Source: Eledone cirrhosa
Taxonomy: Eukaryota
DNA: 64,000 bases
Assembly (NCBI GenBank): GCA_964016885.1
Contig: OZ024740.1
Span: forward strand, 315,146,001 to 315,210,000
Direction of reading: 5' to 3'
The notes beneath the pieces were generated by a model that was given only the letters and a program-made list of their open reading frames with translations, ran no database searches and was not told the DNA's origin. Positions 1,417 to 42,043 of the stretch are shown one piece after another; positions within the stretch are counted from its first letter, which is position 1; each line of letters begins with the position of its first letter. Both the position numbers and the translations under genes were made by a program.

Positions 1417-2228
1417 TATGGAACTCCTTTAACCATCTTTTGATCTTATATTATGCATACTCCAGTCCCACAAACTGTAGAGTGCTTCTTATCCGATATC
1501 TGCATTGCTTTATTGTAATACAATAAAACTCACCTCCTACATATATATATATATATATATATATATATATATATATATATATATATATATATATATATAT
1601 ATATATATATATATATATATATATATATATATATATATATATATATATATATATATATATATATAATATATATATATATATAATATATATATATATATAT
1701 TATATATATATATATATATATATATATATATATATATATATATATATAGATATATATAGATATATATATAGATATATAGATATATATATATAGATATATA
1801 TATATAATATATATATATATAATATATATATATATATATATTATATATATATATTATATATATAGAAGCTCCTTCTATAAAATAAAAAAATTTTACTCTG
1901 CCATGTATTGAGTACCTTACTTACTGTGGTTATCCGCGACTCAACCCGGGAACTACGTATATAATATATATATATATATATATATATATATATATATATA
2001 TATATATATATATATATATATTTCGTTTCTGAATTTGTTTAGCAAGATTCTTTATCTGAAATCGTGTGTTGAAACCGATATTGTTATACTTTGGGAGGGT
2101 CATGTTGCCAATAAGAAACACACGCACCAGTTGCTTTCACTTCAATTTAATTATTTATAAATTTACAAATTTATAAATTTCTGGTTGGTTGGTTGGTTCC
2201 ACAACCAGATAGTTGTTTATATATATAT

Positions 2229-2273
2229 AGTCATAGTTCTTTCGTCACACACTCTGTGACCTCTTCAGTGACT
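2229..2273 (-). ncRNA. Type I hammerhead ribozyme (family A, mirror copy)
   Basis: Exact reverse complement of 2381-2425. Confidence 0.75.
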
Positions 2274-2380
2274 GGGGATTTCTTTCTTCGTTTCTGTGCC
2301 TTTCCTTTCTTCTATCCTACGCCACAAAATGGCGTAGGATAGAAGAAAGGAAAGGCACAGAAACGAAGAAAGAAATCCCC

Positions 2381-2425
2381 AGTCACTGAAGAGGTCACAG
2401 AGTGTGTGACGAAAGAACTATGACT
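2381..2425 (+). ncRNA. Type I hammerhead ribozyme (family A)
   Basis: AGTCA CTGAAGA G GTCACA-gagtg-TGTGAC GAAA GAAC TA TGACT. Confidence 0.75.
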
Positions 2426-3374
2426 ATATATATATAAACAACTATCTGGTTGTGGAACCAACCAACCAACCAGAAATTTATAAATTTGTAAATTTATAAA
2501 TAATTAAATTGAAGTGAAAGCAACTGGTGCGTGTGTTTCTTATTGGCAACATGACCCTCCCAAAGTATAACAATATATATATATATATTATATATATATA
2601 TATATATATATATATATATATATATATATATATATATATATATATATATATATATTATATATATATATATATATATATATATATATATATATATATATAT
2701 ATATATATATATATATATATATATATATATATTATATATATATATATATATATATATATATATATATATTATATATATATATATATATATATATTATATA
2801 TATATAAAATATATATACAGAATGGAAAGAGTGGGGTTAAGTGTAAAAAGAAAGAGAAGAGAAATGATGAGGCTGAAGACGCAAATCGGTGAGGAGACAA
2901 AGAAGGAGTAAGCGTATAAAGTACGATAGAGAGAAAGTGAGTGAAATTTAGAGTGAGAGGGAGAAGGGGTAGAGAGAAGAGAAGAAAGAATGGTGTGTGT
3001 GTGGGGGGGGGGGGGGGGGCTGATAAAGAGAAAGAATCTTAGCGAGTGAAAGAGAGTGTGCGAGTGAGAATAAGGTGGTAAACGGGCGAAAGAGAAGAGA
3101 TGAAAAAGATAAAAGAAACAAGGAAGGCGTGAGTAAAAGTGAGGGAGAGGGAAAAAAGAAATACTGGGTGACAGAGAAATTAAAAGAAAGAGAGAGAGAG
3201 TGAGAGAGGGAGAGAGTGAGAGAGGGAGAGAGTGAGAGAGTGAGAGAGGGAGATACATTAAAATAGAATATATATTTCAAATGTGTATGTATGTCTGTAG
3301 GTATGTATCTATATATGTATATGCATGTGTGCATATATGTTTATATGCGCGGGGACATAGAAATATCCGGCATA

Positions 3375-3663
3375 CCCGATCGCGCGGTTAAACCCCTGGC
3401 ATTCTTCTAGGAGAAGGCAAGTCAGGAAACTGGGATAACTCTGACATAAAACCTGCGGCTCGGTAGTTACCGATGATGTTGATCTTTTCTTCTTTTCGGG
3501 TTATAGCTACTGTCGCTCAGAGAGTGAGATTGGTTCAGTGCAGTCTTTCCTCACTTTAAAAACACCTTCACGCACAGGTATTGTACGATAGAGTTAATTA
3601 ATAATTACTAATAATGTTATATTGTGCAATAGCCATACTCGATAACGAGGGGCAGCAATCATG
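3375..3663 (+). mobile_element. Non-autonomous RTE-derived short element, subfamily 2
   Basis: Reverse-complement match to 32075-32580 and 59341-59630; ends ccatactcgataacgaggggcagcaatcatg. Confidence 0.65.
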
Positions 3664-4029
3664 TAGATGTAGATGTGTTTGTATGTCTGTTTATGCGCGT
3701 CTGTGGGTTTGTAGAGCTGTGTATTTTGTAGGTTGCTTATATTGTGGGTTGTGTAAATTGTGTGTTTCTTTACGTTTTAGAATATAAAAACAAGAGTGCT
3801 CAATACATAATGTAGAGTTTGGTAGTACATACTCACATACGGTGGTGTAGATCTAGTCCATCTCCAGGTTTCTCACAATTTATTTCGTATGGATTAATAG
3901 ACACAAACTGAAGTATTGTTATCTAGACTCAGAAACAAATGAGATTCCTGTCATGACTATCCCATCCTTTGCTGTCAACAATTCATTATCTAATTTCACC
4001 TCGTTATTTAGTGTCTAGAGACGTTGATA

Positions 4030-38819: not shown

Positions 38820-39990
38820 TCTCTACCACTGCCACCACCGTCACCACCACTACCACCAACACCACTGCCACCACCGTCACCACCACTACCACCAACACCA
38901 CTGCCACCACCGTCACCACCACTACCACCAACACCACTGCCACCACCGTCACCACCACTGCCACCAACACCACTGCCACCACCACTACCACCAACACCAC
39001 CACCGTCACCACCACTACTACCAACACCACTACCACCACCGTCACCACCACTACCACCAACACCACTGCCACCACCACTACCACCAACACCACTGCCACC
39101 ACCACTACCACCAACACCACCACCATCACCACCACTACTACCAACACCACTACCACCACCGTCACCACCACTACCACCAACACCACTGCCACCACCACTA
39201 CCACCAACACCACTGCCACCACCACTACCACCAACACCACCACCGTCACCACCACTACTACCAACACCACTGCCACCACCGTCACCACCACTACCACCAA
39301 CACCACTGCCACCACCGTCACCACCACTGCCACCACCGTCACCACCACTACCACCAACACCACTGCCACCACCGTCACCACCACTACCACCAACACCACT
39401 GCCACCACCGTCACCACCACTGCCACCAACACCACTGCCACCACCACTACCACCAACACCACCACCGTCACCACCACTACTACCAACACCACTACCACCA
39501 CCGTCACCACCACTACCACCAACATCACTGCCACCACCACTACCACCAACACCACTGCCACCACCACTACCACCAACACCACCACCGTCACCACCACTAC
39601 TACCAACACCACTACCACCACCGTCACCACCACTACCACCAACACCACTGCCACCACCACTACCACCAACACCACTGCCACCACCACTACCACCAACACC
39701 ACCACCGTCACCACCACTACTACCAACACCACTACCACCACCGTCACCACCACTACCACCAACACCACTGCCACCACCACTACCACCAACACCACTGCCA
39801 CCACCACTACCACCAACACCACCACCGTCACCACCACTACTACCAACACCACTGCCACCACCGTCACCACCACTACCACCAACACCACTGCCACCACCGT
39901 CACCACCACTACCACCACCGTCACCACCACTACTACCAACACCACTGCCACCACCGTCACCACCACTACCACCAACACCACTGCCACCAC
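38820..39990. repeat. (ACC)-rich minisatellite with higher-order ~120-bp periodicity
   Basis: Blocks such as accaccgtcaccaccactaccaccaacaccactgcc; lines repeat at 120-bp spacing (39541/39661/39781). Confidence 0.9.
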
Positions 39991-41084
39991 CATTAGCAGC
40001 ATCACCAACAATAAAAAAGCAACAACAATTTTTTTTATCACCACAACTCCATCCAACTCTCTACTCCTCATCTCTTCATTAACCCCTCTTCACACACACA
40101 CACACACACACACACACACACACACACACACACACACACACACACACAACACCCTTACCTTATTTCATGTTGTTCGTCTGCACCTGATCACCTTTATTTC
40201 ATCACCATTTATTTTTTTCCCTTCAGCTGCCCCTTCCCGTACCCATTATAACACACTCCTGTTGCCACCCACTACCAGGTCCTTACCTTTTCATATCCAT
40301 TATGTATAAGTTTATTGATCTCCATCCCCTAATGTCTGCACCAATTAATACCGAAAGGGATCAATAGAATTGATCCCTTCGTAGAGATATAATAGGAAGG
40401 ACTTTAGAAGGGACATCACTGGGTTTCTATGTCAACATACATAAATGCATATATGTATACACCTACAAAGCCATACACACACACACACACACACACACAC
40501 ACACACACACACACACACACACACACACACACACATACATACATACATACATACATACATACATACATACATACATACATACATACATACATACATACAT
40601 ACATACATACATACTGCATGTGAGTGTGACATATAAAATACGTCATCACTTTAATGAGAAAACGTTTCCCAATTACTTCCCGATGGAGACAATTATTCCA
40701 TGGAAAGAATCTAAAACTGAGGGACACCTTCATTATCAATATGTAAAACTTAATAAGGAAAGCTACTAAATACAAATGTAAACTTCCTTAATCAATGCTG
40801 CAACGCAGAAGCCATCTCTACCAAACCAAACCTATCCATTGTGTGCCAATATATTGTCCTTACAGTGGAAGGTAAACTCAAACAACGATGCTTCAGTTCA
40901 GCCTCAATGTTTCCTTTAGATATATACACAAGAGGAAGATAATAAAACTATTCAATGCAACAACAATATCAACAACAACAACAACACCCACCACAAGTAA
41001 AATGAAATTATCACATGATCTACATGACAGGTGCAATGTGTCCGAACACGGAAGAGACGAACACCCACTATTATCGCCTCCATC

Positions 41085-41280
41085 TCTCTCGCCCTCCCTA
41101 TCTCTCTGTACTGTGAGCAAATGGGGTCCCACGTGCTGGCCGCCCCACAGCCCCGGCGGACAGAATGGAGAAGGCGTTTCCCCGGGGGATGGTAAGGGAG
41201 ATGCGCTGGAAGAGCCATTCCATCTCGCGAGTCTCACACCTGCAGCTGGCCAGCTCAGCGCATATGGTGGTGAGTTATGT
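41085..41280 (-). mobile_element. CRE-like retrotransposon 3' remnant
   Basis: Reverse strand translates LTTICAELASCRCETREMEWLFQRISLTIPRGNAFSILSAG. Confidence 0.75.
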
Positions 41281-41294
41281 GTGCACTTTGAAAG

Positions 41295-41461
41295 AACATA
41301 CAATTGGAAAAATCCTCACAGGATATAACTCGTACAGAAATCGCTCAAAAAGCTGTGGGTTATGTACAGCCGAAAAGAACCTCATATTTGATAACCACAA
41401 CAAAATGTTATACTGTATAAATGTCAGTTCAGAGGTCATAAGCAATTGTCGTCACTGTTAA
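41295..41461 (+). pseudogene. Penelope-like element GIY-YIG endonuclease C-terminal remnant (Neptune-type)
   Basis: YNWK/KIL..YNSYRNRSKSCGLCTAEKNLI...INVSSEVISNCRH matches the PLE pattern WKI...Y...SK.C.LC..EK..I...LN.RSE..S.CRH. Confidence 0.75.
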
Positions 41462-41708
41462 ATATTTGGTGAAACACTGGAATATTTTGCTACATCCTGA
41501 TTAAGCGTATTAATTTACTCTGAGTAATCATAGTCTCTAGTTCTCTTCTATGTGACAATAGATAGTTGTATAACTGTAATAGATGCTTATAAACCTCCAA
41601 TCACTGTTGGTAATACACTTTACCATACAGCAAAACATACTTTTCAATTACAATCTTACTACATGCCCAATATATATATATATATATATATATATACATT
41701 ATATTCAT

Positions 41709-42043
41709 AAATGGAAACTATATTTATAAAACCATAATTATTTTATTATATATATTTCAAGGGCAACCAAGGCAAATTTTGGTGCGCTTTCATCAGATAA
41801 AATACAAAATTTGTTTTATAAATGTTGATATACCCGCAGAAGAGCAACCTTTATCTTATGAAAGCGCACCAAAATTTGCCTTGGTACCCATGAAATATAT
41901 ATAATAAAATAATTATGATTTCATAAATATAGTTTCCATTTATTAATATAATGAATATTTACTCCACTAAACTGTTGAGTGCTTTATATCAGTTATAAAA
42001 CTTTTAAGTTTGTTGAATTCCAACAAATTAAATATAACCTTTG
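41709..42043. mobile_element. Fold-back hammerhead element, family B (divergent)
   Basis: Inverted arms 41709-41800/41851-41943; right tail homologous to 33746-33842; + strand core mutated to CTTATGA. Confidence 0.8.
41740..41803 (-). ncRNA. Type I hammerhead ribozyme (family B)
   Basis: Reverse strand: ATTTTAT CTGATGA AAGCGCACCAA..TTGGTTGCCCTT GAAA TATATA TA ATAAAAT. Confidence 0.75.

Follow-up and report, generated by a model that had tools for sequence, protein, structure and literature searches.

What inserted the palindromes that recur along a 64,000-nucleotide stretch of Eledone cirrhosa DNA (hereafter the window; contig 1, 315,146,001-315,210,000, in a genome of 3.0 Gb), and why does one of their two arms carry a tail that the other lacks? 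We find that the four families in question, A, B, D and E, are the 3' ends, or pseudo-LTRs (pLTRs; LTR, long terminal repeat), of 5'-truncated Penelope-like elements (PLEs) lying in alternating TA sequence, (TA)n, and that the near-strict pairing of a tailed with an untailed arm likely reflects a copying process that starts at two fixed sites of the RNA. The structure as such is already known: inverted pLTRs, a one-sided tail, (TA)n targeting and two in vitro start points of the reverse transcriptase (RT) have all been published. An earlier note on the window had described the asymmetry and read it as a footprint of retroelement integration, without identifying the elements as PLEs, for which a footprint of this kind is on record; its observations are partly confirmed below, and its interpretation is partly supported and close to the published one.

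In the following, S denotes the end of the tail-less arm and T that of the tailed arm. A genome search with a family A arm reached a locus (L031) in which a full pLTR-ORF-pLTR unit (ORF, open reading frame) ending in the tail lies together with a 5'-truncated copy and an inverted fragment, and the family A arms are the pLTR of this intact element. Its ORF of 1268 aa (protein P0001), in which S lies at about codon 8 and T at codon 28, displays by eye DKS, YPS and YVDD motifs, a CX4CxxC linker and a C-terminal nuclease with a C..C..H..H pattern (CCHH type). Pfam gave no hit to the whole protein and a PDB sequence search found no RT; the last 136 aa match Pfam GIY-YIG with 25.2 bits (cut-off 22.6), weak RVT_1 matches below the cut-off occur in six of eight homologs scanned, and the closest of the 166 homologs is an Octopus vulgaris reverse-transcriptase-domain protein (69%). 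A search of sequencing runs returned assembled contigs only, and one RNA run at a share of 0.09. In L132, family B sequence flanks an open frame of 662 aa on either side; the frame contains RT and nuclease motifs, and an inverted tail-less arm lies upstream. Pfam gave no RT or GIY-YIG hit to this frame; its Atlas neighbours (0.95-0.98) carry HTH_animal, GIY-YIG or RVT_1.

The characters of endonuclease-bearing (EN+) PLEs are thus present: a single ORF with RT and GIY-YIG nuclease (intact in A, as an open frame in B), pLTRs in partial tandem with an inverted 5' copy (L031 for A, L132 for B), and a tail at one end only. Family A, with a CX2-5CxxC linker before a C-terminal GIY-YIG nuclease of CCHH type, is provisionally filed, on motifs, only as Neptune/Nematis-type. 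Families B, D and E appear to belong with the Hydra clade (PMC8557442), a likeness by motif only: B has RWK (L131), DKT and CxCX5C (L131 and L132) and no CCHH; D has a Hydra-type nuclease end upstream (L130) with CxCX5C, CxxC and CxH, and is placed by linker and nuclease only; E, the weaker case, is linked only via a decayed C-terminus of this type (L144, L136). All three share the clade's (TA)n insertion and its hammerheads. In family E, ~750 nt separate the ORF end from the pLTR end (L134-L158). The Naiad clade, defined by an N-terminal nuclease and no hammerhead, does not match, as the nuclease is C-terminal here and hammerheads are predicted. Ahead of its RT, P0001 has a long Asn/Thr/His-rich stretch (residues ~245-470; L031:3870-7676, minus strand), which recalls the N-rich inserts of Adineta Penelope elements, although those sit elsewhere (PMC3846280).

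How fixed are the two ends? Exact matches to anchors placed immediately upstream of S number 31,667 (A), 39,620 (B), 4,088 (D) and 3,835 (E) in the genome, whereas reversed control anchors match nowhere. Our sample consists of the first listed places along contig 1, so that the tail was not selected for (all 100 listed for A, 30 loci and 40 further regions of 100 for B, 30 of 100 each for D and E), and its counts are deduplicated by genome coordinate. Of the 100 family A anchors, 47 stop precisely at S and 39 precisely at T, two sites separated by 60 nt; 11 others lie at most 4 nt from S or T, two end within the tail and one reads through. Taken together, the four families have 276 of 283 arm ends no more than ~10 nt from S or T (155 at S, 121 at T, 7 other), with 60-97 nt between the sites depending on the family. 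This is far beyond chance, and the arm-end distributions, which the earlier note had named as the test of its idea, exclude random short-arm endpoints. Its proposals of TA-rich targets and variable 5' truncation hold as well: (TA)n adjoins 249 of the 283 arms (77/90 in B, 30/33 in D, 40/49 in E), and the inner ends spread widely. The tail may lie left or right of the insertion. Tandem copies read on past T: those of family A enter codon 28 of the ORF, and those of family B continue in the direction of the ORF. T is therefore internal there, and the suggestion that one priming event takes place at the RNA 3' end is unsupported, all the more since both starts are internal in vitro (PMC11167929). 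One such array (L035:4067-4949) consists of head-to-tail family A fragments, with units 224 bp apart, that read past the tail to about codon 59.

Mapping to element references placed the following arms in the window; since the arms pass into (TA)n, each end is uncertain by a few nt.

2018..2324, minus strand: family A tailed arm; T end near 2018, 60-nt tail at ~2018-2077, hammerhead motif 2268-2234
2324..2576, plus strand: family A tail-less arm; S end 2576, hammerhead motif 2386-2420
5223..5335, minus strand: family E tailed arm; 80-nt tail
5340..5390, plus strand: family E tail-less arm
5940..5991, minus strand: family E solo tail-less arm; absent from the earlier note
7152..7325, minus strand: family B tailed arm; 174 nt, shorter than its partner
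7334..7523, plus strand: family B tail-less arm; 190 nt
23436..23679, minus strand: family A solo tail-less arm; 5' end adjoins another palindromic family at 23679, hammerhead motif 23630-23596
24892..25134, minus strand: family A tail-less arm; hammerhead motif 25071-25037
25133..25429, plus strand: family A tailed arm; hammerhead motif 25191-25225, tail matches ORF codons ~8-28
26072..26307, minus strand: family D tailed arm; 97-nt tail
26307..26447, plus strand: family D tail-less arm
27976..28084, plus strand: family B (diverged) tail-less arm; hammerhead motif 27983-28032
29362..29480, plus strand: family D solo tail-less arm; (TA)n on both sides
33401..33568, minus strand: family B tail-less arm; hammerhead motif 33495-33447
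33569..33849, plus strand: family B tailed arm; 94-nt tail, hammerhead motif 33656-33704
36000..36153, minus strand: family E tailed arm
36160..36232, plus strand: family E tail-less arm
41694..41835, minus strand: family B (diverged) tail-less arm; hammerhead motif 41796-41747
41850..42053, plus strand: family B (diverged) tailed arm

Most positions given earlier agree with this mapping. The family A short-arm stops placed at 2576, 23438 and 24893 map to 2576, 23436 and 24892, and its tail, seen on the left at 2021 and on the right at 25365-25427, has T ends at 2018 and 25429; the stops of family D (26450, 29482) map to 26447 and 29480, and those of family E (5390, 36230) to 5390 and 36232. 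In family B, 7522, 28083 and 33405 were at most 4 nt off (7523, 28084, 33401), but 41709 was 15 nt off (41694). Tails measure 60 (A), 94 (B, where one of ~95 bp on one side had been reported), 97 (D) and 80 nt (E). That only the long arm bears a tail does not hold, given that at 7152-7523 the tailed arm has 174 nt and the tail-less one 190 nt. The fold-back point does vary, as claimed, among B and E copies, but the two complete A copies hardly differ in it, the tailed arm starting at -254 from S in both. The arms ending at 23436, 29480 and 5940 have no partner in the window; that ending at 28084 has at most a diverged stub, with a possible inverted tail stub seen, by eye only, immediately to the left of the arm.

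Could such structures be artefacts, or be of other than retrotransposon origin, be it through segmental duplication, assembly chimeras or miniature inverted-repeat DNA transposons (MITEs)? Palindromes next to long (TA)n are difficult to assemble, and one family A insertion is indeed present as a duplicate, flanks included, at a distance of 4.5 kb on contig 13 (L002/L003). However, a masked self-BLAST of the window, which gave 15 palindromic matches, mostly next to (TA)n, revealed no flanks common to different copies, and there is one duplicate pair among the 30 best A hits, which bears out independent insertions rather than one duplicated copy. Flanks differ, the arms have diverged (mean arm-to-arm identity 0.92 in A), inner ends vary, and the arms continue into RT and GIY-YIG coding sequence; the last two points refute this explanation and leave it a negligible probability. 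Conversely, stumps as abundant as these could themselves pass for MITEs or microRNA hairpins.

The two sites are not used at random. Of 83 head-to-head pairs, 74 combine S with T, three are T+T, two S+S and four have an odd end; S+T thus makes up 74 of 79 clean pairs, against 50% for independent choice (P = 4e-17), and the two ends of one insertion do not pick their sites independently. For 13 of the 114 S or T arms left unpaired, an additional inverted partner or stub was detected, in every case of the opposite type (same-orientation control, 3/114), and tail-only stubs lie next to 10 of the 74 unpaired S arms, without overlap with their partner. One-armed insertions make up about half of all.

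We therefore favour, as the probable account, an enzyme that cuts both target strands and starts one cDNA at S and one at T of the same RNA, which leaves 5'-truncated insertions in (TA)n. The GIY-YIG nuclease would nick both strands of (TA)n; one target 3'-OH would prime at T, the more downstream of the two internal sites, and the other at S, further upstream; at each, a few TA-like bases could pair with the target. Each cDNA would stop on its own, with its 5' truncation separate from the other's, and the two ends would be joined head to head, in some cases via internal pLTR palindromes; loss of one cDNA would leave a solo arm. In vitro, the Poseidon PLE PAc of Anolis carolinensis cuts and extends both strands of an AT-rich target, and its two internal starts bound the tail (PMC11167929).

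The inner ends of the arms speak to this account. In 28 of 51 compact pairs they lie more than 15 nt apart and often appear independent of each other, the S arm being longer in 16 and the T arm in 12; at L167, L186, L239 and L217 the S arm exceeds the T arm by hundreds of bases (at L239, it reaches -832 and the T arm -53). Where the S arm extends beyond the 5' reach of the T arm, two separately truncated cDNAs are needed. This bears on another explanation, in which a T-primed cDNA folds on an internal palindrome, copies itself sense-wise and stops at S. Junction palindromes have been read as self-priming (PMC3846280), and such folding would account for shared variants (see below), for S+T pairing and for the excess of near-symmetric junctions reported below, several at internal palindromes. 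But a self-copy cannot outreach its template, so that the longer S arms cannot derive from copying of a T-primed cDNA, and the tail-only stubs share no overlap with their partners. Fold-back as the sole route is excluded unless later deletions of T arms are common, and we consider it distinctly improbable as the general explanation. The inner ends are BLAST ends, blurred by subfamily divergence; overlaps of 1-6 nt in 17 of 51 pairs are no proof of microhomology, as BLAST ends overlap by chance. A fixed fold-back at -254 was rejected, the 30 best family A BLAST hits on which it stood having come from a query beginning at -260. In the position-ordered sample, moderate clusters remain at -260 to -280 (A) and near -222 (D). 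The family A 5' ends near -260 cluster at a CAAAATGGCG / CAAGATGGCG motif (window 2324-2335; L031), with GCGCATGCGC ~35 nt upstream of it (~-300 to -254 from S); these resemble YY1 and NRF1 sites and may mark the pLTR promoter.

What marks S and T in the RNA? In family A, both read AATAT, then CG. The alternating TA run at the site end measures 4 and 4 in A, 3 and 6 in B, 2 at S of D and 3 at S of E, against a null mean near 1; with read-through sequence for only six sites, these runs exceed the null in a way that is suggestive only. The same motifs would suit a model in which the GIY-YIG nuclease makes staggered cuts at TA-rich S and T in PLE DNA, either double-stranded or in hairpin form, which is then joined to (TA)n. 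Strict S+T pairing follows naturally from such resolution, and PMC8557442 holds that the tail most likely stems from endonuclease-mediated resolution of an intermediate. On the other hand, the in vitro RT starts match the tail ends of the Poseidon PLE (PMC11167929), and resolution itself does not explain the independently truncated inner ends of 28/51 pairs. We regard this model as unlikely.

Do both arms of an insertion stem from one template? Rare variants common to both arms number 62 in A (shuffled mean 3.6, maximum 22), 27 in B (1.7 shuffled) and 5 in D (0 shuffled); both arms derive from one source copy or were homogenised later. Such sharing would be expected if two RNAs from one locus were bound by an asymmetric protein dimer, one subunit always starting at S and the other at T. 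Here, arm overlap would arise without strand displacement, and a dimer has been predicted for the Poseidon protein (PMC11167929). However, with a symmetric target and both sites on each RNA, the rarity of S+S and T+T (5/79) needs extra asymmetry, and we find the two-RNA version unlikely. The simplest account of the ordered pairing would be that a single RNA serves twice and that the polymerase started at T displaces the cDNA primed at S. More tentatively, and at less than even probability, we propose that PLEs of two distant types practise such ordered twin priming on a single RNA, with each fixed internal site pairing a few bases with the cut (TA)n and used once, and strand displacement yielding the overlapping palindrome. 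If so, these families would suit its testing, with their intact ORF and arm ends numbering in the tens of thousands.

Several observations weigh against two starts on one RNA. First, 101 of the 114 unpaired arms have no inverted partner detected within ~1.4 kb; the earlier note's two fixed end sites hold, and 16/51 compact pairs need two cDNAs, but its two priming events may not apply to each insertion. Second, some pairs break the rule (T+T at L282 and L285, S+S at L338 and L289; in a third T+T pair, L176, one arm reads through T). Third, near-symmetric compact pairs are more frequent than expected by permutation (23/51 against 13.0, P = 2e-4), and several of their junctions sit at internal palindromes; some junctions are coupled, as from fold-back or annealing at palindromes. 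Fourth, family E has no excess of shared variants (0 against 0.2 shuffled, with only six short overlaps), and shared variants fit one source locus or later arm conversion equally well as one RNA molecule. Furthermore, genomic ends cannot separate priming from nuclease trimming at the same sites, and the Poseidon experiments saw no strand difference in start site and a start non-homologous to the target (PMC11167929), in contrast to the S+T pairing of 74/79 and the 2-6 TA-like bases at the site ends here.

Much of this agrees with known PLEs. Inverted pLTRs with a tail are listed as a hallmark in PLE curation (PMC8969392), and all EN+ PLEs are described as following one scheme, in which the tail, of 30-40 bp, is often confined to one end (PMC8557442). 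As in canonical EN+ PLEs, we find partial tandems, an inverted 5'-truncated copy at the 5' end and a one-sided tail; here, however, tails measure 60-97 nt, arm ends number in the tens of thousands, and the (TA)n targets make target-site duplications unreadable. Targeting of (TA)n is known for Hydra and Naiad elements, and the Hydra-clade section of PMC8557442 reports no arm-end statistics. In Adineta vaga Pen2a, a 31-bp tail is optional on one inverted pLTR and covers the first ORF codons; the pLTR covers 12 aa and the tail extends this to 22, compared with ~8 to 28 in family A, and an N-rich ORF stretch is common to both (PMC3846280). Octopus vulgaris has 31 recently active Penelope-like families (PMC13282606).

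L1 twin priming likewise uses two primers on opposite target strands, inverts the 5' segment and joins ends in the middle, with non-overlapping segments and a variable internal site. Here, by contrast, the internal site does not vary, and in most cases the arms overlap and so form a palindrome. The origin of tandem and inverted PLE structures is named an open question in PMC8557442, and steps after first-strand synthesis are left unvalidated in PMC11167929. Our counts constrain models of these steps: the choice of sites is not independent (74/79), both arms have one source, and fold-back alone is insufficient for the longer S arms. Full-text literature searches, with subscription papers and Repbase outside their scope, returned no comparable pairing or junction counts.

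EN+ PLEs carry hammerhead ribozymes in their pLTRs, and predicted motifs of this kind occur here as well. A hammerhead descriptor matched 12 places in the window, nine of them in A and B arms, and none in any of 30 shuffles; on the sense strand of sufficiently long arms it matched 47/65 in A, 51/81 in B and 23/30 in D. In A, B and D arms, the matched strand is the one reading towards the tail. Family E gave 1/25 by descriptor and 5/25 by a looser pattern; its U3-A8-type core, with a long helix II and a 5-bp helix III (L134-L158), is mostly missed by the descriptor. Minimal hammerheads and the U3-A8 variant have been described (PMC4209133). In an Rfam scan of the window, none of the 150 rows listed (out of 242) was a hammerhead, and sub-threshold microRNA matches to palindromes and microsatellites among these rows were rejected as meaningless. 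In the intact element, a core base is changed in the 3' pLTR (L031:3313-3623), while the 5' pLTR keeps its core. Hammerhead cleavage was rejected as the source of the arm ends, as the predicted cut falls upstream of both sites, S and T. Arms extend upstream across this cut, and 5' ends do not pile up there (2/78 A and 2/89 B arms in the 20-nt bin); the Poseidon template is likewise uncleaved hammerhead RNA (PMC11167929).

Further palindromes in the window resemble these families. That at 1106-1540, with a hammerhead motif at 1354-1408 and an unpaired ~90-nt extension rightward ending in (TA)n, is likely an additional PLE family with the same asymmetry. The palindrome at 23679-23930 has a hammerhead-like core (by eye) and a right-hand extension, and its left end meets the family A arm directly, without (TA)n, where A would next read TA. 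Palindromic or hammerhead-bearing fragments next to (TA)n also lie at 791-950, 29700-29930, 33008-33381, 50225-50601 and 51390-51600, the last similar to family D; descriptor matches fall at 29817-29855 and 33111-33062. A 200-base assembly gap (27300-27499) sits within a 2-kb degenerate (TA)n array.

The window holds other repeats as well. A tandem array at 7727-9904 comprises 34 copies of a 64-bp unit (96% matches), and a dispersed repeat of ~180 bp, SINE-like in size, has at least nine copies (10010-10198, 17858-18050, 20163-20358, 32149-32331, 42451-42750, 43997-44250, 44487-44709, 47375-47556 and 54806-54996). Related dispersed repeats of 300-550 bp adjoin (ACAT)n at 19354-19806, 45150-45693, 59344-60958, 32080-32797 and 3372-3660, and form a second microsatellite-associated family.

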